The notes under the pieces are model-generated. The model was given only the letters and a program-made list of their open reading frames with translations. It ran no database searches and had not been told where the DNA came from. Made by a program: the position numbers and the translations under genes. This document shows positions 946-57,554 of a stretch of 64,000 nt of DNA, piece by piece. How positions within the stretch are numbered: the first letter of the stretch is position 1; each line of letters opens with the position of its first letter. This DNA comes from an uncultured Nanoarchaeota archaeon (GTDB lineage: Archaea > Nanobdellota > Nanobdellia > Pacearchaeales > GW2011-AR1): assembly GCA_963743615.1 (NCBI GenBank), contig CAVUQF010000002.1:65697-129696 (forward strand). Reading direction: 5' to 3'.

Positions 946-1362
946 TTAGATATCAACAACCGCTTGCGCCCTCCATCCATTCTTGTCCTTTTTAATATAC
1001 ATCTCAGAATAAGTCGCGGCCTTCAAACTTTCAAGATCTTTATAATTTTTTGTCTTGTCTCCATAAGTAACTGCATTAAGACTTATTCTATCTTTCTCTT
1101 TCTCTATTTTAATTTTTGCTTTTGAGCACACAAAATTTTCTGCATCAAGAAGATAAATGAGTTCATCAATAAATTTGTAGAAAAGCTCTTCATTGTCTTT
1201 CGCAGAAATAATAAACTCTTTCTTTATTGAGCTATTTATTTTTTTGGACTTAGATATAAATTCCGAGAGGGCTAATACCGAGTTTTCAAATATTTCATTA
1301 ATCGTTTTGCCTGATACAGCAAATTTAATATCGGCAGTATGGCTCAAGAGTTTATATTTCAT
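946..1362 (-). CDS. archease, an RtcB activator/chaperone
   Basis: The N-terminus reads LLSHTADIKF (the archease HTAD motif). It is 138 aa and lies next to rtcB, which is the known gene pairing. Confidence 0.8.
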   Translation of the reverse strand: MKYKLLSHTADIKFAVSGKTINEIFENSVLALSEFISKSKKINSSIKKEFIISAKDNEELFYKFIDELIYLLDAENFVCSKAKIKIEKEKDRISLNAVTYGDKTKNYKDLESLKAATYSEMYIKKDKNGWRAQAVVDI

Positions 1363-1799
1363 TGTTTTGCCCAGCAGAATAGTTTCAATTGTTTTGGATT
1401 ATAAGAGTTATCGGTCGCGGTTATGAAAATACTTTGTGCGTAAACATCCTTATTTAATTTAGATCCTAATTCGCATGTATCATATGTAAGACATATTTGT
1501 GCTTGGCATACAAGGGAACTAGGAGTTAGGATTTTAATTGTGTTTTCTATGCTTGTGGGAAAATTGGAACTGCTCCAATTAATCGGGAGAAGTGAATTGT
1601 CGATACCAACTACTTCATTTCTCATACTATCATTTAGTTCGATTGTTCTGAGAACATAAATTTCATAATTGCTTACAAGGTTTGTAGTATTGGACTGAGG
1701 ATTATTTTCTTGATTCAAGATTATAATCAGAACTGCTCCAATGAGCAAAATGGCAAGAAATGCTTCTATTATCCTCATCCATCCTTTTTTATCTTTCAT
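1359..1799 (-). CDS. pilin-like protein with a class III (type IV pilin-like) signal peptide
   Basis: The N-terminus MKDKKGWMRIIEAFLAILLIGAVLIIIL has a basic stretch, a Gly, then a hydrophobic helix. It is the last gene of the pilus operon. Confidence 0.45.
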   Translation of the reverse strand: MKDKKGWMRIIEAFLAILLIGAVLIIILNQENNPQSNTTNLVSNYEIYVLRTIELNDSMRNEVVGIDNSLLPINWSSSNFPTSIENTIKILTPSSLVCQAQICLTYDTCELGSKLNKDVYAQSIFITATDNSYNPKQLKLFCWAKQ

Positions 1800-1800
1800 T

Positions 1801-2541
1801 TTACCAGACTCTTATTATTAAATTTCCCTCCTGTAGACTGCTGTTTCCGTAAAAGTATGATACGGGAAATAATTCAGAGTAAACGTTCCCGCTTTTTTTT
1901 GGATCATTCGTTCCGATTGAGGTTAGATTTTGATAAGTAAAAGTAAACCCAAAATTATCTGCAGGGGAAAGACCTAACTGACCTTTTACAGCATTGTAGT
2001 TACTGTCGTACTCTCCTATTAACTGGGCGACATTGAAATCAAGTAAATAACTTGCATTTTGAACTTGTTCAATTGTATAATTATTTTCATTCGCACCTAG
2101 TGTGAGGCTTTGGGAGTCTGGGAGAGTCCCTGATGGGACTGTGCTAAACAAGGGAGAGTAATAAATCTCAAGAAGCATTTGATTCTCTTCTCCTGAAGAT
2201 GTATCTATACAAAGATCCGATCCAGAACTTACCGAATTAAATACACTTCCTGTGGAGTTTGCAACAATAATCTTTAACGGAATTCCCAAGCTGTTTAAAT
2301 TGTCCGCCATTCCTACAAGTTTGAGGCTGTTCTGGCTTCCCTGATAATCCGTTAGCACTGTTATTGTTGTAAGATTGCCTGTCATGTTTTTTATCAGCTC
2401 TTCATGCAAATAATTGAGATCAAGAGATTTATCCTGCTGGACTTTCATAGATGAACTTACTATCGCATAGAAGAATACAAGAAAACTGACAAATATCATA
2501 AAAGAAATTATTACATCTACATTAGAACCTCTTTTGTTCAT
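1801..2541 (-). CDS. pilin-like or minor pilin protein
   Basis: The N-terminus MNKRGSNVDVIISFMIFVSFLVFFYAIV has a KRG prepilin-like cleavage motif. It overlaps the neighbouring operon genes. Confidence 0.45.
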   Translation of the reverse strand: MNKRGSNVDVIISFMIFVSFLVFFYAIVSSSMKVQQDKSLDLNYLHEELIKNMTGNLTTITVLTDYQGSQNSLKLVGMADNLNSLGIPLKIIVANSTGSVFNSVSSGSDLCIDTSSGEENQMLLEIYYSPLFSTVPSGTLPDSQSLTLGANENNYTIEQVQNASYLLDFNVAQLIGEYDSNYNAVKGQLGLSPADNFGFTFTYQNLTSIGTNDPKKSGNVYSELFPVSYFYGNSSLQEGNLIIRVW

Positions 2542-2571
2542 ATGACTACCTACTTCTAGAAATATATAAAA

Positions 2572-3441
2572 TTATCCAAAGATAACCCCTGCCCCTGCAG
2601 AGATAATGAATGAGAAAACCATCATGGCGAAAGAGTGTTTTATTCCCGCTTTTATATTTCCTTCAGATAACTTTCCGATTGTCAACCCAGTAAAGAAACC
2701 TTGTGTTAATATCAGAAATAAGAACGCATTTCCCAGCTGTTGAGTTTGTAATGCTGAATTTCCCACGGTAGCTGCTGCAGCTGTTGTTGTTCCACCAAGG
2801 ACACCACTTATTCCTCCTCCTAGTGAGCCAACATTAAAACTAGATATTAATGGAAGTATTTTATACTGCATGACTAAAACAATAATCAAAAATATAAAGA
2901 AGATTACATAACCTTGTACAACCATTGTAGATGCAGTTGCCTCTCTTTCTTTTGCAAGCTTATCAGACATACTTACTGCCGATGCAACCGCTTCGAGTAT
3001 TCTTCCTATGTCCCCTCCCGCTTTCTCTGCTTCACCAATAAGAATCAAAGCTCGGGAAATTGTTTTGTTATTTACATCTTCGGAGAATGTTTGTAAGGCA
3101 TCCTTAAGGGGAATTCCCAGAGAGATTTGATTTGCAAGCTTTTTTATGTTTATACCCAGTGCTCCATAGGGTTTATCCTTAGAATTGATAATACTCTTAT
3201 TTATAGGAGTTCCACTCTTAACACTTTCTACTAGGTCTCTTGCAAATTCGAGGAACATTTCCTGTTTTTCAGCCTCTATCTTATTCTCTTGAATTACTGA
3301 AAACACAAAAGGGGAGGCTACTATTATTACTCCTATTCCCAGCAGAAAGAAGAAAAAATTTGTTTGGATAAATAACAGGGAAATTAATATTAAAGTCAGT
3401 CCTGCAATGATTCCAATCCAATGAATTCTTTTTATTTCCAT
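2572..3441 (-). CDS. type II secretion F-domain membrane protein (TadB/FlaJ-like platform subunit)
   Basis: It is polytopic and carries a T2SSF-like cytoplasmic domain (GIPLKDALQTF...ISRALILIGEAEKAGGDIGRILE). Confidence 0.7.
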   Translation of the reverse strand: MEIKRIHWIGIIAGLTLILISLLFIQTNFFFFLLGIGVIIVASPFVFSVIQENKIEAEKQEMFLEFARDLVESVKSGTPINKSIINSKDKPYGALGINIKKLANQISLGIPLKDALQTFSEDVNNKTISRALILIGEAEKAGGDIGRILEAVASAVSMSDKLAKEREATASTMVVQGYVIFFIFLIIVLVMQYKILPLISSFNVGSLGGGISGVLGGTTTAAAATVGNSALQTQQLGNAFLFLILTQGFFTGLTIGKLSEGNIKAGIKHSFAMMVFSFIISAGAGVIFG

Positions 3442-3442
3442 T

Positions 3443-4762
3443 TTATTTTCCGGGTTGTTTAAATCTTAAAAACATTAAGAATACAAAATTTATTAATGCC
3501 ACTCCGAATACCATAATAAGCGAAATTGCTGTGGTGCTTAAGGAGATTCCAAGCCCGCTAACCTGTATCATCATAAAAAGCAGCATTAAAATCATTGGTG
3601 CTGCAATAACTACGCTTATGTAGACATCAATGAATGTTTCAGAACTTCTTGTAGATCTCTCTCTTTCAAGTCTATAATCAAGAAGGAGACTCTCCGATCT
3701 CTTATCAAAAAATTCTCCCAAGTCTCCACCAGAAGTTATATTTGTGGCTAAGCTGTTATACAAATCAGTAAGTTTTTTACTTGGGCAGTAATCCGCTGTA
3801 TTCCTAAGGGCAGTAACCAGATCATGTCCGTATATGTTTACTTCATTCATTACCTTAGTAAACTGTTTTTTAAGATTAGGGTATTCTTCTCCCGTTGATA
3901 CTATGATCTTGAAGATGTTCGTTGGCTCTATCTTAGAACCTGCGATAGCAGACATATTTATTGTTGCAAATGGCAATTCCTGATCTATGTTTGTTTCTAA
4001 TGACTTTCTTTCAAGTGAAGGATAAAAGTAAAGGAAGACAAAAGTTAGTATTGGTAGTATAAATAAGATCCAGAATAGTTCCAAAAATCTTGATATTATA
4101 TTTGTTGCAGGGACTATAAAAGGAGGAGTTGCACTTAGGTTAAAGAACAAAAAAAACAGGAATATAACTAGCGCTACTACCAGAGAAATGAATACTGAGA
4201 GAAAAATTATTGAGATATAGACAGGTGGTATAAAACCAAGATTAGTTTTGAGTAAATCATTGACCATTCCTGAAAAATTCTTGCTTTCAACCAAAGGTCT
4301 TGAAAAATCCGAGAACAATCTGCTTGCAACTCCTGCATATTTATTTGGCCCCTTTCCTACTTTTTTTGCTATTTCTTCCTTCTTTTTCTTCTCAATCCTC
4401 TTGATTATATTTTTTTCAGATCTTGAAATTCTATATTCTCTTGTAAGTTTACTTTCTTCCTCCATTTTTTCGAAGAAATTTTTCTTTGGGACTTTTTTCT
4501 CCTTATCTTCGTTCAGAACTTTATCAATAGTTTTTTTGTTATCCTGATGATCAAGAATTTTAGTCAGATTGATATTATTGATAAATTTTGGAGCTTTATC
4601 ATTTTCAATCTTTAGATTTTGCTTCAATGAGTTTATGTGAGAGGATATAATGGAGTCACTATTTTTAGAGTGGACTACGGAGGTCATCTCATTTACTATT
4701 TTTTTCTCTTTAGATATTATTTTTTTAAGCTCTAGGAAATCACTATTTTTTTGAAAAATCAT
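3443..4762 (-). CDS. type II secretion F-domain membrane protein (TadC/FlaJ-like), with a ~150-aa lysine-rich N-terminal extension
   Basis: T2SSF domain: LPFATINMSAIAGSKIEPTNIFKII...YGHDLVTALRNTADYCPSKKLTDLYNSLATNITSGGDLGEFFDKRSE. The N-terminus is K/E-rich and predicted coiled coil. Its stop is adjacent to the start of the previous gene. Confidence 0.7.
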   Translation of the reverse strand: MIFQKNSDFLELKKIISKEKKIVNEMTSVVHSKNSDSIISSHINSLKQNLKIENDKAPKFINNINLTKILDHQDNKKTIDKVLNEDKEKKVPKKNFFEKMEEESKLTREYRISRSEKNIIKRIEKKKKEEIAKKVGKGPNKYAGVASRLFSDFSRPLVESKNFSGMVNDLLKTNLGFIPPVYISIIFLSVFISLVVALVIFLFFLFFNLSATPPFIVPATNIISRFLELFWILFILPILTFVFLYFYPSLERKSLETNIDQELPFATINMSAIAGSKIEPTNIFKIIVSTGEEYPNLKKQFTKVMNEVNIYGHDLVTALRNTADYCPSKKLTDLYNSLATNITSGGDLGEFFDKRSESLLLDYRLERERSTRSSETFIDVYISVVIAAPMILMLLFMMIQVSGLGISLSTTAISLIMVFGVALINFVFLMFLRFKQPGK

Positions 4763-4956
4763 TTTAAAATATCAGAAATTTTGCTGTTTATTTGGAGAAT
4801 AAATTTCTTTGTTTTGTTAAGATCCTCAGGATTGCTTTTTTTATAAAATTCTTCGAGTTTTTTTTCGGAATCATCAAGAGAGCTTATTAGCTGCCTGAGC
4901 TGTAACACTTGCTCCCCAATCTTGTTTTTAGAATTTTTATCATCCTCTTCTTTCAT
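4759..4956 (-). CDS. small coiled-coil hypothetical protein within the pilus operon
   Basis: 65 aa and K/E-rich. It overlaps its neighbours by 4 nt. Confidence 0.3.
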   Translation of the reverse strand: MKEEDDKNSKNKIGEQVLQLRQLISSLDDSEKKLEEFYKKSNPEDLNKTKKFILQINSKISDILK

Positions 4957-4999
4957 CTGAAGAAAAAGTGAATTCTCTTATTAAATATTTTGTTCTTAA

Positions 5000-6568
5000 C
5001 TATGCTGCAATATTAAACTGAGCTAATACTTCCTTTGGTTTTTTGTAATATTCATTTATAACATCTTGAACTTTTTTGAACTCAAATATCTTTCTCTTGA
5101 ACAATTCATAGATAAGTTGGGTTCTTATTCTAAACTCAGACTCAAGGTCCCTAGTATTTATTCCGTATCTATTAGAAATTTTCTCAAAAACTTTGCTATT
5201 TTTTTTAAAGTAAAAGTCATCGTCTGAAGGGTTCCAGACAAAGGGGGTGTTTGTAAGTGCAATTCCTTCGGAACTTACGTCTATAAGCTCAACAATTTCC
5301 CTCAAACGTCTTGTCTCTTGTTTATTGACAATCGCGTGTGTCATAATACAAACACAGTCTAGGACATTAAGAAGAGTTGGAGGAAGTTCTATAGGAGGAG
5401 TTTCTAGTCTTCTGATAACACTTTCAACGGAATCGGAGTGTATCGTACTCATTGAAGAGTGCCCCGAAGCCATACCTTGGAATAGTACAGATGCTTCTCT
5501 CCCTCTGACTTCTCCCACAATGACATAATCAGGATTTTGCCTGAATGAACTTCTTAATAAGTCAAACAAGCTTACAGAGCCTATTCCTCTTATCCCAGAT
5601 GATGATCTTGAAACACTAGGAAGCCAGTTTTCTCTTGGGAGGTTTAGCTCTCTCGTATCTTCAATACTTACAACTCTTGCTTCAGGGGGTATGAAGAATG
5701 CGACTGCGTTTAGCAAAGTTGTTTTTCCAGAGGATGTTCCCCCTGTAATTAGTATATTCATCTTGTACTGTATTAAAAGCCATAAATATGCAACCATTTC
5801 TGGACTTAGTGTATTAAAGGAAACTAATTGAGGGGGAGTCCATGGTTCTTTAGTGAATTTTCTTATAGTAAATGTTGGGCCTCTACTTGTAATATCTTTT
5901 GTGTATGTCGCATTTACTCTGCTTCCATCTGGGAGACTTCCATCAAGAATCGGATTTGCATATGAAATATACTGTCCTGATCTCTGGGCTAGTTTTTCTA
6001 CAAATCCTTCCAATTTGTCCATATCTCTAAATATTATATTTGTCTTCATATTTCTATACAGTCTGTGGACAATGTAAACAGGAGTATCTGCTCCGTTATT
6101 TTCTATATCTTCAATAAAATAATCTCTTAGCAGGGGCTCGATCTCATTAAATCCGATGAAATCTCTGCAAAGATAATAGTAAATTTTTTTATAACTTTCA
6201 TAATTAATATCAATTCCTAATTCAATTAAGAGAAATCTAAATCTCTGATCAATATATCCTAACAGCCCTTCGAGATCGTTCTCTACAATAATATCAAAAT
6301 TTATCATTTCTCTCATTGCATTGAGTATCCTTCTCCTGTAGTCTTCTTCCCTCATATTCAACAAAGGCTCCTCAATCTCATAGACAACTTCGTATATTTT
6401 TGGATCCCAGTATATATGCGCAAATGCAAAGGGGGAGATCAAACAGTACCTTACATCAATTTTACTTTTATCCTCTATCCTACTCATGTGGGGGATCTGA
6501 GGAGAAAAGTCTATATCCACCTTAGGAAAATTTTCTATTCCAATTCTTTTTTGTTCTTGTTCTGGCAT
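5000..6568 (-). CDS. type IV pilus/archaellum assembly ATPase of the FlaI/TadA/VirB11 family
   Basis: Walker A ILITGGTSSGKTTLLNA, followed by SIEDTRELNLP and the His box. The 522 aa length is typical of archaeal FlaI/PilB-like ATPases. Confidence 0.85.
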   Translation of the reverse strand: MPEQEQKRIGIENFPKVDIDFSPQIPHMSRIEDKSKIDVRYCLISPFAFAHIYWDPKIYEVVYEIEEPLLNMREEDYRRRILNAMREMINFDIIVENDLEGLLGYIDQRFRFLLIELGIDINYESYKKIYYYLCRDFIGFNEIEPLLRDYFIEDIENNGADTPVYIVHRLYRNMKTNIIFRDMDKLEGFVEKLAQRSGQYISYANPILDGSLPDGSRVNATYTKDITSRGPTFTIRKFTKEPWTPPQLVSFNTLSPEMVAYLWLLIQYKMNILITGGTSSGKTTLLNAVAFFIPPEARVVSIEDTRELNLPRENWLPSVSRSSSGIRGIGSVSLFDLLRSSFRQNPDYVIVGEVRGREASVLFQGMASGHSSMSTIHSDSVESVIRRLETPPIELPPTLLNVLDCVCIMTHAIVNKQETRRLREIVELIDVSSEGIALTNTPFVWNPSDDDFYFKKNSKVFEKISNRYGINTRDLESEFRIRTQLIYELFKRKIFEFKKVQDVINEYYKKPKEVLAQFNIAA

Positions 6569-7089
6569 TATCCTAGTGAAAAATCCATATTTGTAGGATT
6601 TCCTCCATTATTTGAAATTAAAAGATTGTAGGGGGTGGAAGAGTGCGTTATCTCTCTTACACTGTTTCCTCCGGAATAAGTTATGTTATATATCTTGTTG
6701 TAACTCATGGTCATGTTCACTATATTCAGATTATTTTGTGCTTGTGTATTAACTAAAATATTTCCGTAGCTCACAGGTTGCCCGGGCTCGCTAAATTGAT
6801 AATGACTATTGTCCATACTAAAAATAATGAGATCATTAGTTCCATCAATTGTCAGAGTTCCGGATGTTAAACTAATTTGCAGGCTTCTGGTATTGCCCGC
6901 ACCGTTATCTGCAAGGGACAATAAAATATTATTAATATTATTCAACATTGATACTGATTGTTGCAAAGTAGCTTTATCCTGTAATTCCATTATTTTTGGT
7001 TGAACATAAGAGAGCACTAATCCAATAATCACCAAGGCGATTAGAGTATAAATAACTGTCTCAACCCAAACCTGCCCTCTTTTACTCAT
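6568..7089 (-). CDS. type IV pilin-like protein
   Basis: The N-terminus MSKRGQVWVETVIYTLIALVIIGLVL has Gly, then Glu at +5, then a hydrophobic helix. This is the classic T4 pilin signature. Confidence 0.55.
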   Translation of the reverse strand: MSKRGQVWVETVIYTLIALVIIGLVLSYVQPKIMELQDKATLQQSVSMLNNINNILLSLADNGAGNTRSLQISLTSGTLTIDGTNDLIIFSMDNSHYQFSEPGQPVSYGNILVNTQAQNNLNIVNMTMSYNKIYNITYSGGNSVREITHSSTPYNLLISNNGGNPTNMDFSLG

Positions 7090-7188
7090 TATATTATGAA
7101 TAAAATTTAATTTAAATAATTATCATATACATCAAATTTAATTAGTTCTTAGCATAGAGAGATACAAATAATTCTATGGATCTTTTGA

Positions 7189-7806
7189 TTAATGGATAGA
7201 TAAGTCATGGTAGAAGAATTTTTTTCCTTCCATTAGAACAAAGTCAAGATAGGGATTTCCATTATAAAATAAGATTAAATCTTTGCATATCTGAACGATA
7301 TAATCTCTAAATTCAAAATCAGGAATCTCCGAAAATAGGATTTTATTATTAATAATTGGGACCTTAAATGAAAAATCCGGAGTAAAATCTGTCCCAGATT
7401 TCCTTAGTCCGTTTTTTATATCAATATAAATCGTATTTCCTATCTTAAATGAATGGCCTGTAAAAATAGTATTAGCCTCATTAAATGAGGGACCTATCGA
7501 AAAAATTCTATTTTTTCTGGAAATTCCATCCGCCTCCATCTCTGCATTTAATGATCTTAGAGCAGATTCAATTTCATTTTTATGAATATTAACTCTTCTC
7601 CATCTACCCATTTTGTAGGGGTGATCTGTAATCTTTATTCTGTTATCAGACCCCATAATTAAAATATTTTCTTTTTCTCCAATCTCCTCCAAAAATTCGG
7701 AAGGTATTTCTGAAATAATATTGAAATGAACAAACCTCTCAGGTAAGCCCATCTTCTTTAGTAACAAAACTCCTTGGATATTCATAAAAATATAGTTTAG
7801 AATCAA
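7189..7806 (-). CDS. hypothetical protein embedded in the pilus locus
   Basis: 205-aa ORF with no recognisable motif. Its start is uncertain; MGLPERF is an alternative. Confidence 0.3.
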   Translation of the reverse strand: MILNYIFMNIQGVLLLKKMGLPERFVHFNIISEIPSEFLEEIGEKENILIMGSDNRIKITDHPYKMGRWRRVNIHKNEIESALRSLNAEMEADGISRKNRIFSIGPSFNEANTIFTGHSFKIGNTIYIDIKNGLRKSGTDFTPDFSFKVPIINNKILFSEIPDFEFRDYIVQICKDLILFYNGNPYLDFVLMEGKKFFYHDLSIH

Positions 7807-7900
7807 GTTAAAAAATCTTACTCATAAAAGAATTGTAAATCGGACCAGTAGGGTAAATTTTAATTAAATTTAACTTTTTTAAGAATAACTAATGTAAACT

Positions 7901-8413
7901 TTATGATAAGAGACTACAGTCATCTAGTTTTTGTATTGAATCTGAAGCAGAGCATTGTTGCCCTCCTATCACCGGAGCAACTTGTATTGAATTTGGAGCA
8001 CTTGACCCTGTCCAAGAATAAAGATATGTTGATCCTGAGTTTATGCCCGGTAATATTACTTGCGAACTTCCATCTGGATAATTTGATAAACCCTGAATTG
8101 CCTGAGTTTGTGTTGTTATTGTAAAACTTTTCGATTGGCTTGGGCCAGAAATTGAAACTAAAGCTCCATCTACACTACTGCCACCTATATTCAATGAGAA
8201 TTGAACTTGATTTGAACTGCTATTATAACAAGAATATTCATTGTTTAAGGTGATATCATTGTAAACATTGTAACAAGATGTCGACTGGCTAATTTTAGGG
8301 CTGATAAAATTGTTTATCACAGTCCATACAACCGCAACCAGCACGATTGTTAATACGACAAGAAGCAAAGTTGCTATAATAGTTGAGATGCCTCTCTTAT
8401 TTTTTGAAAACAT
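7901..8413 (-). CDS. archaeal-type pilin (DUF361-like N-terminus)
   Basis: N-terminus MFSKNKRGISTIIATLLLVVLTIVLVAVV. The mature part is S/T/N-rich. Confidence 0.6.
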   Translation of the reverse strand: MFSKNKRGISTIIATLLLVVLTIVLVAVVWTVINNFISPKISQSTSCYNVYNDITLNNEYSCYNSSSNQVQFSLNIGGSSVDGALVSISGPSQSKSFTITTQTQAIQGLSNYPDGSSQVILPGINSGSTYLYSWTGSSAPNSIQVAPVIGGQQCSASDSIQKLDDCSLLS

Positions 8414-8414
8414 T

Positions 8415-8897
8415 TTAACTTAAAGAAATTTTATATTGATTCTGGCTTCCACAGGTATAAACCTGCTCTTGCCCTCCACTTGTGCTTCCCATTAATATTG
8501 GAATTAAGACTAAGCTGCTAGATCCAGATGGCAAGGTGACACTTCCAGAGAACACTCCCCCCTGATTTATTCCTATTTTGGGCCAACTTGAGATTAGACT
8601 GCTCACTGTTTGAGTTTGGTATGCTCCTCCGGCTCCATTAATTTGAACATTAAAGTTATAGATTGGTACATTTCCTGTATTAGAAATTGCTAGAGTTCCT
8701 GAAGTAGTAGACGTTGATGAATAACTCCCCTCAAACTGAACGTTATTACAAACCAATTGAATATTTTCTCCTCCAAATTTAGTCACCGCCTCTTGCGTAA
8801 AGCTTCTGAACCAGAAGAATACAACCAGCCCTAAAGCGATAACAATTCCAATCAGTAAAACTGTTGCTATTACTGGCGAAACCCCCTTTTTGTTCAT
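8415..8897 (-). CDS. archaeal-type pilin (DUF361-like N-terminus)
   Basis: The N-terminus MNKKGVSPVIATVLLIGIVIALGLVVF matches the archaeal pilin N-terminal domain consensus (GVSPVIATVLLI). Confidence 0.65.
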   Translation of the reverse strand: MNKKGVSPVIATVLLIGIVIALGLVVFFWFRSFTQEAVTKFGGENIQLVCNNVQFEGSYSSTSTTSGTLAISNTGNVPIYNFNVQINGAGGAYQTQTVSSLISSWPKIGINQGGVFSGSVTLPSGSSSLVLIPILMGSTSGGQEQVYTCGSQNQYKISLS

Positions 8898-8945
8898 ATT
8901 TTATTAAGTACAAATTAGTTTATAAATATAATGAGATTTTGAAAA

Positions 8946-9515
8946 TTAAGAACAGGTTATTGGGAGATCTATCTTTGCATTATCACACCCTGCAATCACA
9001 TTTCTTCCATTTAATTCCACAAATCTTGTCGGGGTAATCTCCAAACTGTTCAATGTTGTAATAGGGATCACAGGGTTTATCTTTGATAAATCGAAAAAAT
9101 TATCACTACCCCCCGTTATTTCTCCCGGGCTAAATGGGTTCAGGCTTGGATTAAGATTCCCCTCTGTAAGAAGGAAATAATAAACAGCATTGTTTGCTAT
9201 TGTGTAATCTCCCGAATAATATTCCGTAAGATCTATTGTGGCTATCTGTTGATTTGGACTATCCGATCCATGTATGAAGTAACCTGAAATGTTGAAAGTT
9301 CCTGTGTTTTGCAGTGTTAGATTTAGTGTGTTGCTTGCACAGCTGTAATTATAACTAATTACAGATAGAGATACCCCGTCGGGGCAAGATATTGCATCTT
9401 GAGGAACATAAGTTTTAAGCCATTGATATACAAAAATGCTTATTGTTACAACAATTGCAACTAATAAAATATATCCGATGATTTCGCTTACACCTTTTTT
9501 ATTTTTTGTATTCAT
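8946..9515 (-). CDS. archaeal-type pilin-like protein
   Basis: N-terminus MNTKNKKGVSEIIGYILLVAIVVTISI. Confidence 0.55.
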   Translation of the reverse strand: MNTKNKKGVSEIIGYILLVAIVVTISIFVYQWLKTYVPQDAISCPDGVSLSVISYNYSCASNTLNLTLQNTGTFNISGYFIHGSDSPNQQIATIDLTEYYSGDYTIANNAVYYFLLTEGNLNPSLNPFSPGEITGGSDNFFDLSKINPVIPITTLNSLEITPTRFVELNGRNVIAGCDNAKIDLPITCS

Positions 9516-10021
9516 TATCCGCTTACAGTGTAATTCTGTCCCCCGCTTTGACTAGATATAATAAAGAAAAAATTCTCATTTGATAATTGGAAGTTATAGT
9601 TATAATTATTAATCATGACACTTACTGTGCTTCCAGAAGGATTAAAATATTCTGAATATACTTTTTGGAGTGTATTCGTCGGAGAAAAACCATCTATTCT
9701 GACAGTGGCAGGAAAATTTTGATATATCGTAACGTTCATTCCATTTGTTCCATTAAAAATAAAATACCAATCATCTTGGGGTGTGCTATTAATGTATAAG
9801 TTGGCTAGAGAATATAAGCTATTTTCCATTTGTGCATTATCATAGTGGTTAACTATTCCATAATTTATAACTTTTTGGCTTTCAATTGTGAGTTCATCTT
9901 TTAAGTAGGAAGCATCGTAATTTTGTTGTGAAGAAACAGAATTTGAAACTACAAAAAAACCTATTGAAGCAGAAATGATAACTATTGCGGCTATGAGGAA
10001 GAACTGCCCCCTTTTGTTCAT
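9515..10021 (-). CDS. pilin-like protein, first gene of the operon
   Basis: N-terminus MNKRGQFFLIAAIVIISASIGFFV. It shares 1 nt with the next gene. Confidence 0.5.
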   Translation of the reverse strand: MNKRGQFFLIAAIVIISASIGFFVVSNSVSSQQNYDASYLKDELTIESQKVINYGIVNHYDNAQMENSLYSLANLYINSTPQDDWYFIFNGTNGMNVTIYQNFPATVRIDGFSPTNTLQKVYSEYFNPSGSTVSVMINNYNYNFQLSNENFFFIISSQSGGQNYTVSG

Positions 10022-16671: not shown

Positions 16672-17397
16672 TTAAATTTTTTTAATCTGATATTTTTCCA
16701 AAACTTCTTCCTCAATAAAATGAAGTTTTCCCGGAATTATAAAACAAAAAGGGGCTTTTATATTTTTATCAGTTACATCATCTACTTTGCCGTAAATAAT
16801 CTTCGTCTTGTCTGTTCCTAAATTGGAGCAGACCAGAATTCTCACAAGATTTAGTTCATATTCCTCTGCAGATTCTTTCAATTCTTTCAAAGCATCTTCA
16901 AATTTTAATCCAATATCTACAAGAACGAGGCTGTGGGCATCTATGGATAGATTCTGCTTTATATTTTCAACAAAACTTTTGGGTTTAAAGTTTCCGCTCC
17001 ACTTCGGAATGCTTGATATTTTTCCAAATTTGTATAATTGCAGGCCCGTCTCAGCAACAGCGTCGATAATCGAGGCATTGTAAATAATTTTATATTTTAT
17101 CTTTTTCTTCATTGTATCTTGGATCAAAGAGATATGTGTCGTGGCAGTCAGCGGGCTTCCGTAGATTAGCAATGCAATATCATCTTTTTTTGCTTCGTCG
17201 ACTATCTTTAAACTCTCCAAGAATTCTCTGCCTGCGGGTAATATCTTTTTTTTAATTACTTTTTCAAGTTTTTTTATGGAGTATGGAAAGTTAACAGTGT
17301 AATTATCAAGGTAGATTTTTTTACATTTACTGATTATTTCGCTAGACTTTCTTGATATTGAGTTATAATCTAGACCTAATCCGATCAAATACAGCAT
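16672..17397 (-). CDS. dph5: diphthine synthase
   Basis: N-terminus MLYLIGLGL, of the tetrapyrrole-methylase type, 241 aa. It matches the Dph5 consensus. Confidence 0.8.
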   Translation of the reverse strand: MLYLIGLGLDYNSISRKSSEIISKCKKIYLDNYTVNFPYSIKKLEKVIKKKILPAGREFLESLKIVDEAKKDDIALLIYGSPLTATTHISLIQDTMKKKIKYKIIYNASIIDAVAETGLQLYKFGKISSIPKWSGNFKPKSFVENIKQNLSIDAHSLVLVDIGLKFEDALKELKESAEEYELNLVRILVCSNLGTDKTKIIYGKVDDVTDKNIKAPFCFIIPGKLHFIEEEVLEKYQIKKI

Positions 17398-17939: not shown

Positions 17940-18773
17940 ATGGATTATCAAAAATTTTTAATAGTTGCAAGCAAAAAAGATAAAGCGGGGATTAATATCA
18001 CAACCCGCCTTTCTCAGTTCAGGGAGAACCCTATGCTTTCTTCAATGAAGCAGCAGTCTGGATTTGATTTTTATCTGGTTGAGGAGGAAATAATTTATAC
18101 AGAGAACCTAAATCTTGAGAAAATAAATAAATATGATTTTATCATATTTGCTTCAAGGCACAGTTCTGAGAAAAACGAGAAAACTCTTTCAGTTCATGCC
18201 CCGGGAAACTGGAGAAAGGCTGATTTGGGAGGAAAAGAAGGAAAAATTTGCCGAACTTCTGCTCTTTTTGAAAAACAACTGTTTGAGAACTTAAACAAGA
18301 ATACAAAACAATACGGTTTGGATAAGGATTATGCAGTGACTCTTGAAGCTACTCACCATGGTCCTCTCATTGATAAGCCCTGCATTTTTATTGAAATTGG
18401 GGCTACAGAAACAGAATGGAACGATAGAAGAGCGGGTTTTGTGGTTGCAAAAACAATTGATGATACAATAAAGACTTACAAAGAGAATCCATATAATGAA
18501 GTTGCCATTGCAATAGGGGGGCCTCATTACTGCCCTAGTTTCAACAAAATACAATCCAGCTCAAACATTGCCATTTCTCATACAATCCCGAGATATTCTT
18601 TACCTTTATCAGAAGAGATGATAAAAGAGGCAATACAGAAAACAGAGGAAGAGATTGATTTCGTTCTTCTTGATTGGAAAGGGATAGGTAATGAATCTGA
18701 AAGAAAGAGGATACTTGAAATTCTTGAAAGATGGTATCTTCAGTACAAAAAAATAAGCGATATTAAGAAATAA
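17940..18773 (+). CDS. dtdA: D-aminoacyl-tRNA deacylase, archaeal type (DtdA/DTD2)
   Basis: Motifs FASRHSSEK, HAPGNW, EATHHGP and FIEIGATETEW match the archaeal DTD2 family. Confidence 0.8.
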   Translation: MDYQKFLIVASKKDKAGINITTRLSQFRENPMLSSMKQQSGFDFYLVEEEIIYTENLNLEKINKYDFIIFASRHSSEKNEKTLSVHAPGNWRKADLGGKEGKICRTSALFEKQLFENLNKNTKQYGLDKDYAVTLEATHHGPLIDKPCIFIEIGATETEWNDRRAGFVVAKTIDDTIKTYKENPYNEVAIAIGGPHYCPSFNKIQSSSNIAISHTIPRYSLPLSEEMIKEAIQKTEEEIDFVLLDWKGIGNESERKRILEILERWYLQYKKISDIKK

Positions 18774-18799
18774 CTTTTACAAACATTTATATAATTTTT

Positions 18800-19417
18800 T
18801 TGCATAATCTTATAATGGACCCCGTCCCCGATAAGAACTTGAAAGATAAGATTTCTGCGCTAGATCCGCAATTCCGAGAAAAAATAAGCAAGATGTTTGA
18901 AGCTATGCATCAGTCGATTGACCTGCTTTATGATGCTGCGATTCATGATGAAAAGACGGGATTGTATAATCATAAATTCTTTGATACTGTTATTGATATG
19001 GAAATAGAGAAGGCAGAGAGAAAAAAGGAGAAGCTTTCTTTGGTCATGATTGATATAGACCATTTTAAAAAAATAAATGATACTTACGGGCATCTAAAAG
19101 CTGATGAGATGCTTGCCAAGCTTGCAAAAGTTTTGATGAACTGTGCAAGGAAGTCTGATGTTGTTGCAAGATTTGGCGGAGAAGAATTTTTTATACTGCT
19201 TCCCGAAACACAGATAGAAAAAGCAAAAAAATTTGCATCTAGACTAAAAACTGCAATTCACAGAGATGTTTTTCTAAAAAAATACAAGCTCACGGTAAGC
19301 GGGGGCATAACTCAATTTAAAGCAAAGGATGACAAGGCAAGATTTAAGGAGAGGGCGGACAGGGCATTGTACAAGGCAAAAGAGGGCGGTCGTGACAGGT
19401 TCGAGGTTTTGAAATAA
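18800..19417 (+). CDS. GGDEF-domain diguanylate cyclase with an intact GGEEF site
   Basis: KTGLYNHKFFD...LVMIDIDHFKKINDTYGHLKADEMLAKLAKVL...ARFGGEEFFILLPET...TVSGGIT...ADRALYKAKEGGRDRF. A-site and I-site-like motifs are both present. Confidence 0.8.
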   Translation: MHNLIMDPVPDKNLKDKISALDPQFREKISKMFEAMHQSIDLLYDAAIHDEKTGLYNHKFFDTVIDMEIEKAERKKEKLSLVMIDIDHFKKINDTYGHLKADEMLAKLAKVLMNCARKSDVVARFGGEEFFILLPETQIEKAKKFASRLKTAIHRDVFLKKYKLTVSGGITQFKAKDDKARFKERADRALYKAKEGGRDRFEVLK

Positions 19418-19459: not shown

Positions 19460-22000
19460 ATGCAAAAGGGGTCTGAATTAGAATATTGGAATAAGACTGA
19501 GGGAGATTTATTTCGAGTCTTTAAGAGTTCTCGGCAGGGGCTGACAGAAAGTGAAATTGAATCAAGGCATAAAGAGTATGGTTATAATCAGCTAAAAAAG
19601 AAGAAGTCTTTTCTTCTTCTGCTTTTAAGGCAATTCAAGAATCCACTATTATGGCTTCTTATTGTAACAAGTGTACTTTCAATGTATTTTGGAGAGGTAC
19701 TCGGAGGAACAATAATACTTGTTCTTATTTTTCTTTCTGCAATTGTATCCTTTATTCAAGAATATCGTTCTGAAAGAATTGTCGATGATTTGAATAAAAA
19801 AATTTCCCATAAAGCAATTGTAACGAGAAATGGCGAGAAAATTGAGATTGATGTAAAGAACATCGTTCCAGGGGATATTATAAATTTGGATGTAGGGAGC
19901 AAGGTCCCTGCGGACGTAAGGCTTATTGAAGCCGAGAACCTTGAAATAAACGAGTCTATTCTTACAGGAGAATCCGTTCCAGTGCATAAAGTTTCGGATG
20001 TTCTTAAAAAAGCGGACGTGGACAAGAATTATAAGAATTATGCTTTTGCGGGAACAATTATTTCGGACGGTCAGGCCTTGGGAATTGTTCTGTCGATTGG
20101 AAATCAAACTAGGCTTGGGCAGCTTTCAAGGACAGTCATTCAGGAAAAGCCTCAAATTCAATTTCAAAAAGGTATAAGCCAGTTTGTAAATTTCCTGATA
20201 AAGGTTGTTTTGGTCCTAACAGTAATTATCTTTGCTGCAAATGCCGTTCTGAAACAAAATATCCTTGATTCTTTGCTATTTGCGCTTGCTGTTGCAATAG
20301 GGATCGCTCCAGAAATGATGCCTGTAATTATGACTATAAGTATGTCAATAGGTGCAAAAAACATGGCAAAAAAGGAAGTAATTGTGAAAAGGTTAGTCTC
20401 AATTGAGGATTTTGGGAACATGGATATTCTGTGTACAGATAAAACAGGAACAATAACAGAGGGAAATATAGAGTTGCATAACTATTTTGACCTTTCGAAC
20501 AATTTGAATGAAAATATACTGCTATACAGTGTTCTTTGCAATTCTGCAATACGCCACGGGAAAAAAATATCTGGGAATTCTATTGATGCGGCAATTCTTA
20601 AGTATGCCGGAGACAAGGTTATTTCGGAATTGGAATCATACTCTAAAATTGAAGATATCCCCTTTGATTATGATAGAAAAAGAATGTCCGTTGCGGTCAA
20701 GAATGGAAAGGAGCAACTGCTTATAACTAAAGGTGCCGTATTTCCTATACTGAAAGTTTGTTCAAAGATTGATATTAATGGAAGGGTTGGGGGAATTGCA
20801 AATTATAGAGAAAAAATAAAAAAGAAGTTTTTTGATCTGTCAAATGAGGGACTGAGGGTTATAGCCGTTGCATACAAGAATTCCTCAAAAGCTAGCTATG
20901 ATAAGGCTGATGAAAAGGAATTAACTTTCCTTGGATTTATTACTCTCTCCGATCCTCCAAGAAAAACAGTAAAGGGATCCCTTGAAAAATTAAAATCTCT
21001 CGATGTAGCTTTTAAAATACTTACAGGAGACAATGAAATAATAACTCAAAAGATTGCTCAAGAAGTTGGAATTCAGATTACTAGGATTGTTATTGGAGAC
21101 CAGATAGAAAAATTTGATGATAAGAAGCTCAGCGAAGTTGTTGAGAAAGCTAACGTTTTTTGCAGGCTCACACCCTCTCAGAAGCAAAGGATAATAAAAG
21201 TCCTGAAGGAAAACGGGCATGATGTGGGGTATATGGGAGATGGGGTAAATGATATAGAAGCTCTTTATGAAGCAGATGTTGGGATTTCAGTTGATACGGC
21301 TGTGGATGTTGCAAAAGATGCATCAGATATAATCCTTTTGAAGAAAGATCTTGGCATTCTCGCAGGAGGGGTTGCTGAAGGCAGGAAAATCTTTGGAAAC
21401 TCAATGAAATATATTCTCATGGAAGTAAGTTCAAACTTTGGGAACATGCTTAGTTTATCTGTCTCCTCTTTTGTTTTGCCATTTCTTCCAATGCTTCCTA
21501 CCCAGGTTCTGCTTAATGATATGCTCTACGACTTTTCTCAAGTACCCATATCCGGAGATAATGTTGATTCTGAGTATCTGAAAAAACCTAAAAAATTCGA
21601 TTTAAAACTTATTAGAAGATTTATGATTTGGTTCGGACCAATTAGTTCTCTTTATGATTTTCTTACTTATGGGGTTTTGATTTTCTTATTTAAGGCAAGC
21701 CAGGCGACATTCAGGACAGGCTGGTTTATTGAATCAATAGCAACTCAGACGCTTGTTGTTTTTGCAATAAGAACAAGACGTTCCCCTTTCTGGAAGAGCA
21801 AGCCTGGAAAGGGAATTTTAATTAGCTGCTTTACCATAGTTGCAATAGCCTTGATTATTCCATATACCCCTCTGGGGAACTTATTCCAATTCATTCCTAT
21901 GCCTATTTGGTTCTTTGTGTACGTCGTTGCCGCAGTATTAACTTACCTACTTTTAGTCGAGATGAGCAAGAGGATTTTCTACAAGAAATATGAGATTTAG
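19460..22000 (+). CDS. P-type cation-transporting ATPase (MgtA/Ca-ATPase-like)
   Basis: Phosphorylation site ICTDKTGTITEGN. Hinge GDGVNDIEALYEADVGIS. About 10 TM segments and 846 aa. Confidence 0.85.
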   Translation: MQKGSELEYWNKTEGDLFRVFKSSRQGLTESEIESRHKEYGYNQLKKKKSFLLLLLRQFKNPLLWLLIVTSVLSMYFGEVLGGTIILVLIFLSAIVSFIQEYRSERIVDDLNKKISHKAIVTRNGEKIEIDVKNIVPGDIINLDVGSKVPADVRLIEAENLEINESILTGESVPVHKVSDVLKKADVDKNYKNYAFAGTIISDGQALGIVLSIGNQTRLGQLSRTVIQEKPQIQFQKGISQFVNFLIKVVLVLTVIIFAANAVLKQNILDSLLFALAVAIGIAPEMMPVIMTISMSIGAKNMAKKEVIVKRLVSIEDFGNMDILCTDKTGTITEGNIELHNYFDLSNNLNENILLYSVLCNSAIRHGKKISGNSIDAAILKYAGDKVISELESYSKIEDIPFDYDRKRMSVAVKNGKEQLLITKGAVFPILKVCSKIDINGRVGGIANYREKIKKKFFDLSNEGLRVIAVAYKNSSKASYDKADEKELTFLGFITLSDPPRKTVKGSLEKLKSLDVAFKILTGDNEIITQKIAQEVGIQITRIVIGDQIEKFDDKKLSEVVEKANVFCRLTPSQKQRIIKVLKENGHDVGYMGDGVNDIEALYEADVGISVDTAVDVAKDASDIILLKKDLGILAGGVAEGRKIFGNSMKYILMEVSSNFGNMLSLSVSSFVLPFLPMLPTQVLLNDMLYDFSQVPISGDNVDSEYLKKPKKFDLKLIRRFMIWFGPISSLYDFLTYGVLIFLFKASQATFRTGWFIESIATQTLVVFAIRTRRSPFWKSKPGKGILISCFTIVAIALIIPYTPLGNLFQFIPMPIWFFVYVVAAVLTYLLLVEMSKRIFYKKYEI

Positions 22001-22194: not shown

Positions 22195-22565
22195 ATTGCT
22201 AGATATTTATTGATATTTATAAAATTGCCATAAGTTCAAAGAAGTTATTAGAAAAGAATAAATACTCTAGAATAATTAAAAAAGTATGTATAAAAAGGGG
22301 AAGGGAAATGGCAAAGGCGGAATAATAATTTTTGTCTTGATTATAATTGGACTGCTTATATGGGGATATTTTGGAGGGAAGAATACTACTGACTTAACCA
22401 CATGTAACATCCACTTCGGGATATTCTGCTGGAAGTGGACAGGTGCAGTTAATGCAACTACTAACACAATTGGGCAGGCAGGGGGGACGGTAAGCAACCT
22501 CATTAATGGATCAAGTATTCCGTCATAAATTCTAATTGTAACCTCCTCGTCTTACGAAGAATCAT

Positions 22566-22646
22566 CGCCCAGAGCAGGAATCGAACCTGCGAGCCCTTGC
22601 GGGCCCGGATTAGCAATCCGGTGCAATACCATTATGCGATCTGGGC
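22566..22646 (-). tRNA. tRNA-Ser (anticodon GCU)
   Basis: Acceptor GCCCAGA/UCUGGGC+G. Anticodon arm CCGGA-UUGCUAA-UCCGG. Long variable arm GCCCGCAAGGGCUC. T-arm GCAGG-UUCGAUU-CCUGC. Confidence 0.6.
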
Positions 22647-22736
22647 ATAATACAAATTTCTATGATATATTACTTATAAGCCTTTTTATCCCTCTTATGA
22701 GAATCTTTAAAAACAAGTTCAGATACGTTTTATTAT

Positions 22737-22812
22737 AGCGGGGTAGAGCAGCCTGGAGTGCTCGCGAGGCCCATAACCTCGAGGTCGCGTGGTTCAAATC
22801 CCGCCCCCGCTA
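22737..22812 (+). tRNA. tRNA-Met (anticodon CAU), initiator-like
   Basis: The A1:U72-type acceptor AGCGGGG/CCCCGCU+A is typical of archaeal initiator tRNA. Anticodon arm CGAGG-CCCAUAA-CCUCG. T-loop UUCAAAU. C33 is unusual, and the T-stem has one bulged nucleotide. Confidence 0.7.
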
Positions 22813-22907
22813 TTAAATGATTAAGCAAATCGGAGTTTTGTGGATTTTGAATCCATTTTATTTATAAATCTTAAAGGGTTTACAGTCAAAAGGAGGAAAT
22901 TAGTCTA

Positions 22908-39632: not shown

Positions 39633-40208
39633 ATGAATATTAAAGATGTAAAAACTGCCTTTAAAGTTGCAGATGTAATCCTTGAAAAAGAACATCCGAT
39701 AAGACGTATAAGATTTGTTTTCCTTGATGAAATCTATGATGAACATAGAAAGAGATTAAATAACGATGTTCTAAAGGATAATTCTGGTAGAATTTATCTG
39801 ATTGTTGTGAATGGTCAAATAATGAAAATTGGTGGCTCACAAAGTAAGGGAGGGATAAAAAGCACACTATCCTTTTATCAGGGAGGATTACAAGGCGGTC
39901 CAAGTATCAGGACCTATGGAATTCATATTCTATTGAGCGAAGAACTTGAAAAAGGAAAGAAAGCAGAAATTTATATGATAACTTCTCAAAGAGCAAGGAT
40001 GAAAGTAAAGGGTCTATTTAGTGAAGATGAAACGGAAGTTTCGGCATTTAAGGATATGGAAGATAAATGTAAAAAAGATTATGTTGATAAAGAAGGCACT
40101 TATCCTCCTTGGAATTTTCAGGAGAAGGGAGAACCTTGGAGAGAAGATATAACACGAGGATTAAATATACACGGTAGCAAAAGGAAAGTCTTGAATAAAA
40201 ATAACTAA
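39633..40208 (+). CDS. hypothetical protein, a candidate restriction endonuclease partner of the adjacent MTase
   Basis: 191-aa ORF convergent with the MTase, overlapping it by 4 nt. No motif is assigned, so the call rests on context only. Confidence 0.3.
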   Translation: MNIKDVKTAFKVADVILEKEHPIRRIRFVFLDEIYDEHRKRLNNDVLKDNSGRIYLIVVNGQIMKIGGSQSKGGIKSTLSFYQGGLQGGPSIRTYGIHILLSEELEKGKKAEIYMITSQRARMKVKGLFSEDETEVSAFKDMEDKCKKDYVDKEGTYPPWNFQEKGEPWREDITRGLNIHGSKRKVLNKNN

Positions 40209-42113: not shown

Positions 42114-42187
42114 ATATTATATACCTACTTAAAGGTATAGTCTTTTAAAATAATAAAGTTTAAAAACATACCTATTTTAAGGTATAT

Positions 42188-42790
42188 ATGCCTAATAGTG
42201 AGTATATATCATTCTGCCATCGTTGTTATCACACTTGGAAGAGAAGACGAGAAGAACTTCCAAAAGTCTGCCCAAAATGTAAAAGTCCTTACTGGAATAA
42301 ACCAAAGAGAATTGCTCAAAGATTAATTCTTCCAACTTCCGAAACTATAATTAAAATCCATGATGAGATAATAAGAAAAAGTGGAGGTGAATTGGGTATA
42401 AGAGAAGATGGAGGAATACATAACTCTATTCTTAAATTACTGAATCATCAACAAAAGAACAGGAAGAATCCTGAAAGTATAGGTGCTTTTGCTTTAAACG
42501 AATTTGCTAAAAGACACTATTTTATAGATGGTAATAAAAGAATAGCTTATGCAGTAGCTAAAATATTTATGCTCATAAATAGATGTCATCTAAAAACAAA
42601 ATATGGTGAAGCTACTGAATTTATTAGAGAGGTAGCTAAATATCAAAGCAAAATAGACCTTCCAGAAATTAGGAATTGGTTTAAAGATAACAGATGTGAA
42701 ATAATTACCGAGAAAGAATTAGAAAACTATTTAAGTAGAAACTACTTTGATTTAGTATTTGAAGAGGAAGGGGGGCAAAATGGAAGATGA
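42188..42790 (+). CDS. Doc/Fic-family toxin (death-on-curing) with an N-terminal Zn ribbon
   Basis: The Doc motif HYFIDGNKRIAYAVAKIFML has the form HxFx(D/N)GNKR. The N-terminal CHRC...CPKC forms the Zn ribbon. Confidence 0.75.
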   Translation: MPNSEYISFCHRCYHTWKRRREELPKVCPKCKSPYWNKPKRIAQRLILPTSETIIKIHDEIIRKSGGELGIREDGGIHNSILKLLNHQQKNRKNPESIGAFALNEFAKRHYFIDGNKRIAYAVAKIFMLINRCHLKTKYGEATEFIREVAKYQSKIDLPEIRNWFKDNRCEIITEKELENYLSRNYFDLVFEEEGGQNGR

Positions 42791-57553: not shown

Positions 57554-57554
57554 C

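Follow-up and report, generated by a model that had tools for sequence, protein, structure and literature searches.

Introduction

The described enzymes closest to the protein reported here are bacterial diguanylate cyclases, in which a GGDEF domain makes cyclic di-GMP (c-di-GMP) from two GTP: SiaD of Pseudomonas aeruginosa (PA0169), which is switched on by docking of the SiaABC partner switch on its stalk; PleD of Caulobacter and WspR of Pseudomonas, both response regulators composed of a receiver (REC) and a GGDEF domain; and DgcB of Caulobacter crescentus, in which a parallel coiled-coil stalk stands just before the GGDEF domain. In 2018, the only GGDEF domain accepted as archaeal was that of an open reading frame (ORF) in Methanocella arvoryzae, others being suspected of contamination by the curators of the c-di-GMP domain census (PMC5847659), and the caution was repeated for HD-GYP domains in 2021 (bioRxiv 2021.11.05.467447) and for GGDEF domains in 2022 (PMC10086821). 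More than 300 archaeal BLAST hits, many of them in Asgard and DPANN archaea, were mentioned without analysis in 2021 (PMC8646023). Here we analyze a stand-alone GGDEF protein encoded in a 64,000-nucleotide stretch of DNA from an uncultured Nanoarchaeota archaeon (Pacearchaeales; GenBank assembly GCA_963743615.1, contig CAVUQF010000002.1, positions 65,697 to 129,696 of the forward strand), hereafter the window, together with its relatives in other genomes and metagenomes (loci given as L and a number). A first-pass annotation of the window had noticed the protein as a complete diguanylate cyclase and had left it either as a horizontal acquisition from bacteria or as a rare native enzyme. No description of this DPANN GGDEF family was found in our literature search.

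Results

Gene model and catalytic domain

The window contains an ORF at 18800-19417 (+), which the first-pass annotation had read from its TTG codon as a stand-alone domain of 205 residues with a short N-terminal extension. The architecture stands, but the length does not: the true start is almost certainly the ATG at 18815 and not the TTG at 18800, because the gene callers, the starts of the orthologues and a TATA-like box at −29 agree, the callers giving 200 residues on 13 independent contigs and every orthologue beginning at the equivalent ATG. As assigned with PF00990, TIGR00254, AlphaFold2 and Foldseek, the gene (stalk plus GGDEF) spans 18815..19417 (+) and encodes a stand-alone protein of 200 residues, consisting of an N-terminal extension (residues 1-43; 18815..18943, +), delimited by the AlphaFold2 secondary structure and family conservation, and a GGDEF catalytic domain (approximately residues 44-198; 18944..19408, +), delimited by Pfam and phmmer.

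The catalytic domain is full length, as had been noted before: residues 47-200 of the 205-residue translation match the PF00990 (GGDEF) profile from end to end (1-161/161; E=2.6e-43, 148 bits versus a cutoff of 23.8), TIGR00254 is matched with E=1.2e-46 (158.4 bits versus 37.4), and phmmer matched 47 diguanylate cyclases of the PDB, the best being 3IGN (E=1.2e-34). Among the equivalogs, the model for SiaD (NF038266, the second-best NCBIfam match, E=6.8e-48) gave 163.2 bits versus a cutoff of 290 and that for PleD (NF007135) 165.2 bits versus 474, with only the C-terminal stalk-GGDEF part aligning in each; since 163 bits is far under the equivalog cutoff, the protein is not a SiaD orthologue.

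The A-site, G121-G-E-E-F125 (19175..19189, +, read from the sequence), is a canonical GGEEF and is invariant from G121 to F125 in an alignment of 49 family sequences. Against the list of PleD residues used to judge GGDEF competence (PMC6629876), D80, K85, N88, D97, K189, and R193 stand at the offsets of PleD D327, K332, N335, D344, K442, and R446, bearing out the conserved D, K, and N positions noticed at first pass; the first five never vary in the family alignment, and R193 is kept in 90% or more of the sequences. The I-site, an allosteric RxxD motif found in many active cyclases but not all, is R112-K-S-D115 (19148..19159, +), likewise read from the sequence; it lies five residues before GGEEF, an arrangement (RxxD-5-GGEEF) kept in 117 of 120 family members, and the secondary I-site arginine, R143, which corresponds to PleD R390, is conserved in 90% or more of the family.

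Mutagenesis has shown that the combination of Asp348 with GGEEF confers diguanylate cyclase activity and no other, and the Hypr synthases of cyclic GMP-AMP (cGAMP) have Ser at this guanine-specific position (GacA S348) together with GGDEF (PMC6456294). The present family departs from the Hypr pattern in having an invariant Asp (D97) with GGEEF, a combination that would specify GTP and therefore c-di-GMP as the product. As far as sequence and fold can show, all the requirements for GTP/Mg2+ binding, catalysis, and binding of the product at the I-site are kept.

Predicted structure and stalk

An AlphaFold2 model of the monomer, built on 49 family sequences, has a predicted local distance difference test score (pLDDT) of 91.2 and a predicted TM-score (pTM) of 0.80. 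It shows, in order, a short amphipathic helix (residues 7-14), a break at L16-D17-P18, a 26-residue helix (18-43), and the GGDEF fold. The break forms a hinge, L16-D17-P18-x-F20, and 119 of 120 family members have its L[DE]PxF motif. The long helix is amphipathic with a heptad-like hydrophobic spacing, residues 20, 24, 27/28, 31, 35, and 38 being hydrophobic in 100% of members and the hydrophobic periodicity of the stalk peaking at 3.5-3.6 residues. The 50 best Foldseek matches in the PDB are all GGDEF proteins (3IGN with a root-mean-square deviation of 1.9 Å over 163 columns), and the best structural matches carry the GGDEF domain on a dimeric coiled-coil stalk, namely SiaD (7E6G), GCN4-zipper-WspR (3I5C), DgcB (6TTR), and DgcR (6ZXB). 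From the model we infer that residues 1-43 probably serve as a dimerization stalk.

Family size and taxonomy

A search of 5.8 billion proteins gave more than 120 clusters that are 64-88% identical to the query, the best 120 being stand-alone proteins of 192-210 residues. A profile made of stand-alone representatives at the far end of the family (45-60% identity) led back to the same clade. Altogether, at least 198 distinct clusters at 90% identity have this architecture (192-220 residues). Judged from the named homologues only, the family is distributed over Nanoarchaeota, Pacearchaeota, Woesearchaeota, and "Nanoarchaeia", the one exception being a mis-binned contig labelled "Omnitrophota". 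The first-pass picture of the GGDEF domain as a great rarity in archaea therefore fails for this lineage, in which the gene is not isolated but belongs to a very large DPANN family that is tightly conserved.

Among 121 aligned members the pairwise identity is 57-99% (median 67%), and conservation is 99% or more at 53 of 200 positions, the catalytic and I-site residues among them; the best bacterial matches are approximately 43-48% identical, in the catalytic domain alone. In a neighbor-joining distance tree of 163 sequences and 151 columns, the members with at least 54% identity form a bacteria-free clade in 82 of 100 bootstraps; the sister group lacks support, so that the phylogenetic placement suggested at first pass names no donor. 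A scan of GTDB genomes yielded at least three family loci (L005-L007), and a metagenome scan with the motif DEKTGLYN yielded 120 loci, 54 of them with a family member, 33 with other GGDEFs, and 33 with no GGDEF. Family members were not found on viral contigs. One member (L093:76-984) is cut off after NDTYGHxKAD, from where the reading frame runs on into approximately 230 unrelated C-terminal residues; it is either a disrupted gene or an assembly chimera.

Archaeal context and mode of inheritance

The cyclase gene follows those for diphthine synthase (Dph5; 16672-17397; TIGR00522, 183.5 bits versus a cutoff of 114.3) and, directly upstream, the archaeal D-aminoacyl-tRNA deacylase DtdA (17940..18773, +; PF04414, E=1.3e-58), which serves as the synteny anchor; the archaeal nature of these two flanking genes, on which the first-pass annotation had relied, is upheld. 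The window also encodes RNA polymerase subunits of the Rpb1 and Rpb2 types, aEF-2, aEF-1alpha, ribosomal S7 and S12, a NusA-like KH protein, Rpb7/RpoE, archease, and archaeal type IV pilins, and its GC content is even throughout (approximately 0.35). The exact protein with the same neighbors occurs on 13 contigs (the longest 297 kb) from several ENA assemblies, which excludes a one-off chimera, and the related loci contain putatively intron-bearing tRNAs, taken as archaeal context.

The gene occupies a fixed place in a conserved locus that runs from arginyl-tRNA synthetase through TrmB, a class I aminoacyl-tRNA synthetase, Dph5, and DtdA to the cyclase, and then through a variable stretch and tRNAs to RNaseHII and Rad50/SMC. 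This locus is kept around homologues of 69%, 66%, and 75% identity on contigs of 247-777 kb, around one of 82% identity (L223), on Pacearchaeota contigs of 184 and 464 kb, and, at 54% identity, on a contig (L007) of a metagenome-assembled genome (MAG) labelled Woesearchaeota; a member of 49% identity, in which the LDPxF motif is missing, is likewise found near RNaseHII-Rad50, at a distance of 4 kb. Upstream flank of 900 nt or more is available for 41 of the 54 metagenomic family loci. In 31 of these, DtdA immediately precedes the cyclase gene on the same strand, in 4 others it lies no more than 1 kb away, and 6 lack it; it also adjoins the cyclase gene in L005-L007, L085-L087, L209, L223, and L224.

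The identity of the cyclase to the window copy is correlated with that of the neighboring DtdA (r=0.66, p=0.001, n=21); the cyclase has a mean identity of 64.6%, DtdA one of 65.6%, and Dph5 one of 57.6%. The ratio of nonsynonymous to synonymous substitution (dN/dS) is approximately 0.06-0.10 versus four orthologues, values that are rough because dS is saturated. Taken together, the synteny, the co-divergence, and the strong constraint indicate, at the level of sequence, that the gene was acquired anciently and has since been inherited vertically and held under strong purifying selection, its entry into the lineage preceding the divergence of the sampled Pacearchaeota/Woesearchaeota-type relatives. 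Of the two origins left open at first pass, the native one is favored, and recent transfer finds no support in this synteny and co-divergence with housekeeping neighbors.

Promoter

A TATA-like box, TTTATATA (18786..18793, +), lies 29 nt before the ATG at 18815, within the 41-nt gap that follows the DtdA stop codon. Of 23 orthologous loci, the flanks of which have otherwise diverged, 20 have a TTTAWATA-like box at −28 to −30, and the same motif peaks sharply at −29 across the 55 genes of the window (genome-wide background 0.0009 per position), with 17 of 26 motif starts in the 60-nt upstream regions falling at −30 to −27. This pattern implies a predicted archaeal-type TATA promoter and a leaderless or near-leaderless mRNA, and the cyclase gene appears, from its sequence context, to be an independent transcription unit.

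In seven family loci (L109:796-1245, L116:8613-9056, L139, L154, L162, L165, and L112), a divergent gene for a membrane protein of approximately 150 residues with 3-4 transmembrane helices is found just upstream of the cyclase gene, sometimes between DtdA and GGDEF.

Downstream neighbor and variable region

The cyclase gene does lie directly upstream of a P-type ATPase gene, as first described, the product being a Mg2+ transporter of the MgtA type (19460..22000, +) that satisfies the TIGR01524 equivalog (834.8 bits versus 610.75, covering 13-865/867). This adjacency is not conserved. Of the 19 metagenomic family loci in which the downstream sequence extends for 1.5 kb or more, none has an MgtA-like gene there, and the same holds for L005-L007, L085, L087, L208, L209, and L224; in L223, the nearest relative with a sequenced locus, it is 1.4 kb away behind two opposite-strand genes, and L086 has a different P-type ATPase (666 residues) 2 kb away. 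The variable region between the cyclase gene and tRNA/RNaseHII differs by lineage, containing saccharopine dehydrogenase, MFS-RimK-nitrilase, ParE/MazE, a diadenylate cyclase (DAC) gene, or others. The MgtA adjacency is lineage-specific and incidental, outside the conserved unit, and nothing in the genomic data ties the cyclase to the ATPase.

MgtA and an MgtC-family protein (51513-52154, −) make up a bacterial-style Mg2+ homeostasis pair in the window. The MgtA region ends at tRNA-Ser and tRNA-Met (22565-22814), the latter called by ARAGORN at 22735-22814, where the Rfam score is under the gathering cutoff. Elsewhere, tRNA matches of 141-222 nt (L005:12111-12251, L160:11825-12027, and L086:9344-9565) are consistent with intron-containing archaeal tRNAs. 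A same-strand gene directly downstream of the cyclase gene in L085, L101, L137, and L143 encodes a protein (approximately 170 residues at full length in L085 and L101) with an N-terminal transmembrane helix and a GNFEAGLGHPGHIEGT...YLRGRNGARLYYR motif.

Candidate partners and other features of the window

In the family loci, no neighboring gene is conserved besides the housekeeping anchors, and the individual candidates for a partner were rejected. The ATPase of a type IV pilus-like locus shows no T2SSE_N/MshEN match at its N-terminus that would mark it as a receptor; RimK lies within a few kb in L085, L086, and L224 only; and DAC abuts the cyclase in L224 and is nearby in L103 and L182 only. 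A defense role was likewise set aside, with no PADLOC match, no members on viral contigs, and no effector genes nearby.

The pilus-like locus occupies 946-10021 (−), 9 kb from the cyclase gene, and comprises the T2SSE ATPase (5000-6568), two T2SSF platform proteins (2572-3441 and 3443-4762), archease, and several small proteins that resemble archaeal Pilin_N weakly, with scores below the cutoff. In L224, a 464-kb Pacearchaeota contig, the DAC gene (L224:7592-8164, −) abuts the GGDEF gene (L224:7001-7591) convergently, so that cyclases for c-di-AMP and c-di-GMP are neighbors there; this DAC (PF02457) is a diadenylate cyclase of 190 residues with a C-terminal hydrophobic tail, and related genes lie near GGDEF in two other loci only (L103:2055-2603 and L182). 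Approximately 8.8 kb past the 3' end of the window, a 180-residue protein (L225:18830-19372), picked out by name, matches PF09778 "Guanylate_cyc_2".

Three further features of the window are recorded here. The Rpb1-type subunit, which is split into A' and A'' in most archaea, is encoded by a single ORF of 1174 residues (43654-47178, −) with Rpb1 domains 1-5 and apparently no A'/A'' split; read from its listed TTG start, the ORF overlaps the Rpb2-type gene by 62 nt. Between the ribosomal S12/S7-EF-2 and NusA-RNA polymerase genes, a likely mobile insertion (40205-42790) encodes a D12-class adenine methyltransferase, a DDE (IS240/Mutator-like) transposase, and a Fic-domain protein. A bacterial-type NrdR repressor (Zn-ribbon plus ATP-cone) is encoded directly upstream of a ribonucleotide reductase large subunit with TSCPD, and a corrinoid adenosyltransferase (BtuR/CobO) gene adjoins them (55070-58007 and 54530-55063, −).

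Discussion

The results described above make it probable that the protein is a diguanylate cyclase competent for catalysis and that it is native to its host, a DPANN archaeon of the Pacearchaeota/Nanoarchaeota type. For one clade, the provenance of an archaeal GGDEF gene is settled: the order of archaeal housekeeping genes around it is conserved, its divergence follows theirs, purifying selection acts on it, and its promoter is a native one.

Suspicion of bacterial contaminant DNA or of a chimeric assembly is natural in view of the general doubts about archaeal GGDEF and HD-GYP domains from MAGs (PMC5847659; bioRxiv 2021.11.05.467447; PMC10086821), and two orthologous public contigs are indeed labelled "Candidatus Omnitrophota bacterium" (L005, DATJPO010000045.1) and "Bacillota bacterium" (L006, DATKUW010000087.1). 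These two carry the archaeal block of DtdA, Dph5, RNaseHII, and Rad50 at 57-90% identity to the window, however, and must therefore be mis-binned DPANN DNA. In the window itself the gene sits between the archaeal DtdA/Dph5 and RNaseHII/Rad50 genes and behind an archaeal-type TATA box at −29, on DNA that encodes archaeal RNA polymerase, aEF-2, and aEF-1alpha, and the same arrangement recurs on the 13 contigs and on orthologous contigs of 200-780 kb, so that this explanation is effectively refuted, in agreement with the first-pass judgment that the contig is not a bacterial contaminant. A different objection concerns the product: the protein might make cGAMP, as the Hypr enzymes do, or linear pppGpG, might hydrolyze a nucleoside triphosphate like GdpP, or might act only in nucleotide binding or as a scaffold. 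GGDEF enzymes with other products exist (PMC6456294), canonical c-di-GMP partners are lacking close to the gene, and there is a weak likeness to the Cas10/Cmr2 palm (PF22335, 26.4 bits versus 27) and to the degenerate GGDEF of the GdpP type (PF24898, 20.6 bits versus 30). Both of these matches are under the gathering cutoff and are explained by the common palm fold, however, and the guanine-specific and catalytic positions are canonical (D97 rather than Ser, N88, GGEEF, K189, and R193), the Asp/GGEEF pair having acted as a diguanylate cyclase and nothing else in the mutational work (PMC6456294). Moreover, an I-site conserved in 117 of 120 members makes sense only with c-di-GMP as the product, and we consider a different activity unlikely.

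The genomic neighbors suggest two further explanations. Operon or pathway coupling with DtdA, tying tRNA proofreading to the cyclase, would account for the frequent adjacency of the two genes (31 of 41 loci directly, 4 more within 1 kb) and for the gaps of only approximately 35-60 nt. It is nevertheless distinctly improbable, given the conserved TATA box inside this short gap at the genome-typical −29, implying a transcription start of its own, the absence of DtdA in 6 of 41 loci, and the divergent membrane-protein gene between the two genes elsewhere; the block of aminoacyl-tRNA synthetase, Dph5, DtdA, RNaseHII, and Rad50 reads as a conserved order of unrelated housekeeping genes. At the other flank, a recent, lineage-restricted acquisition working with the P-type ATPase, for example in control of cation transport by c-di-GMP, could be proposed from the 42 nt that separate the two same-strand genes, the highest third-position GC content (GC3) in the window, the MgtC also encoded there, and the presence of another P-type ATPase and a VTT/DedA membrane protein among the variable-region neighbors of the relatives. 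Such a partnership is very improbable: no MgtA-like gene follows the cyclase in any of the 19 metagenomic loci, two opposite-strand genes intervene in the 82%-identical relative, and the cyclase, being syntenic down to approximately 49-54% identity, predates the insertion of the ATPase gene. In addition, the stop codon of the cyclase gene is followed by a T-run (TAATTTTTC), the sole TATA-like stretch before MgtA is outside the scanned motif set, and the orthologues show no GC3 deviation.

Returning to a native and competent cyclase, a wider reading is that a major DPANN clade, the Pacearchaeota/Woesearchaeota-type Nanoarchaeia, has in c-di-GMP a genuine second messenger of ancestral origin, made by one housekeeping-like, feedback-limited cyclase and read out and removed by components of a non-bacterial type. 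We regard this as a tentative proposal with somewhat less than even chances. Several points weigh against a native and competent cyclase. According to a 2023 review, c-di-GMP has not been detected in any archaeon (PMC10249747), and the family is known from sequences alone, no cultured organism carrying a member. Dimerization through the stalk is suggested by a monomer model and by analogy. The tree is a simple distance tree of 151 columns in which the sister group (L012 and L037) is without support, and no donor lineage can therefore be named. With a GC3 of 0.390 versus a mean of 0.299 (z=2.4), the window copy of the gene ranks first among 52 window genes, and its codon adaptation is poor, the score being the third-lowest of the 52 (z=−2.2). 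Finally, no EAL, HD-GYP, or PilZ domain was found among the window ORFs of at least 110 residues and several smaller ones, nor, in precomputed Pfam annotations, in the 10 kb beyond each end of the window, and Rfam gave no c-di-GMP riboswitch, either for the window or for 145 kb of related loci; the partner check suggested at first pass thus came back empty over approximately 84 kb around the gene, and with neither phosphodiesterase nor receptor in the scanned DNA a full signaling circuit is not demonstrated. As to the base composition, the deviation that the first-pass annotation had proposed to look for is real in the window copy and absent in three orthologues (L085-L087), whose GC3 is unremarkable among their own neighbors (z 0.07-0.73); we therefore rejected it as a sign of recent transfer and take it as a local fluctuation, which may be sampling noise. 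As to the empty neighborhood, the wider reading supposes that readout and removal depend on components unlike the bacterial ones, since none of the bacterial kinds is nearby.

In the predicted mechanism, two monomers would pair via the amphipathic N-terminal stalk, as in SiaD, DgcB, and WspR, bringing together two GTP-loaded GGDEF domains for the formation of c-di-GMP from 2 GTP, and binding of the product at the I-site would cap the c-di-GMP level by feedback inhibition. Because there is no sensor domain, transcription and feedback inhibition would determine the output, perhaps together with a partner that docks at the invariant LDPxF hinge much as SiaC does on the SiaD stalk.

DPANN genomes of this type are small (approximately 0.5-1 Mb) and hold very few regulators, and the strict retention of the cyclase in them suggests an important role. 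An attachment-related one is plausible only by analogy with bacteria. In a groundwater study, diguanylate cyclase genes were reported to be 1.7-fold commoner in sediment-attached than in planktonic MAGs of ultra-small organisms (Candidate Phyla Radiation and DPANN) (PMC9938205). If the wider reading is true, this would be the first archaeal c-di-GMP system, with a possible role in the control of surface or host attachment in ultra-small symbionts, and the receptors of this c-di-GMP could be new. As the enzyme is small, soluble, and sensor-less, the question of whether archaea make c-di-GMP becomes one for an experiment rather than an argument over databases.

Comparison with known systems

The role proposed for this protein is worth comparing with those of the described GGDEF enzymes. 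The closest in structure is SiaD, the top Foldseek match (7E6G; E=3.8e-17, query TM-score (TMq) 0.78, stalk included), which shares with it a small size, a cytoplasmic location, the lack of a sensor domain, a GGEEF-type active site, and an I-site. The two differ in their hosts, the present one being archaeal, in the invariant LDPxF hinge specific to this family, and in activation, no partners of the SiaABC kind being seen here. PleD and WspR are also structural matches, and the likeness to PleD extends to the I-site, R359xxD362 and R390 having the same offsets; unlike these response regulators, the present protein has no receiver domain, no activation by phosphorylation, and no recognizable input domain. 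DgcB (6TTR) and GCN4-zipper-WspR (3I5C) have the parallel coiled-coil stalk in the same place, and their structural alignments cover approximately 190-208 columns including the helix, at an identity of only 27-32%; they are bacterial or engineered, however, with other N-terminal parts. GacA of Geobacter, a Hypr enzyme, has the GGDEF fold in common (6D9M, E=3.6e-27), but combines Ser with GGDEF where this family has Asp (D97) with GGEEF. RCIX2274 of Methanocella arvoryzae (CAJ37382) is likewise a GGDEF protein in an archaeal genome (PMC5847659; bioRxiv 2021.11.05.467447), and is set apart by its description as a single multidomain REC-PAS-PocR-GGDEF-HD-GYP ORF of one methanogen. Altogether, the kind of enzyme, a cyclase with a stalk and a GGDEF domain, is well known, and its occurrence as a conserved native family in a major archaeal clade is unexpected.

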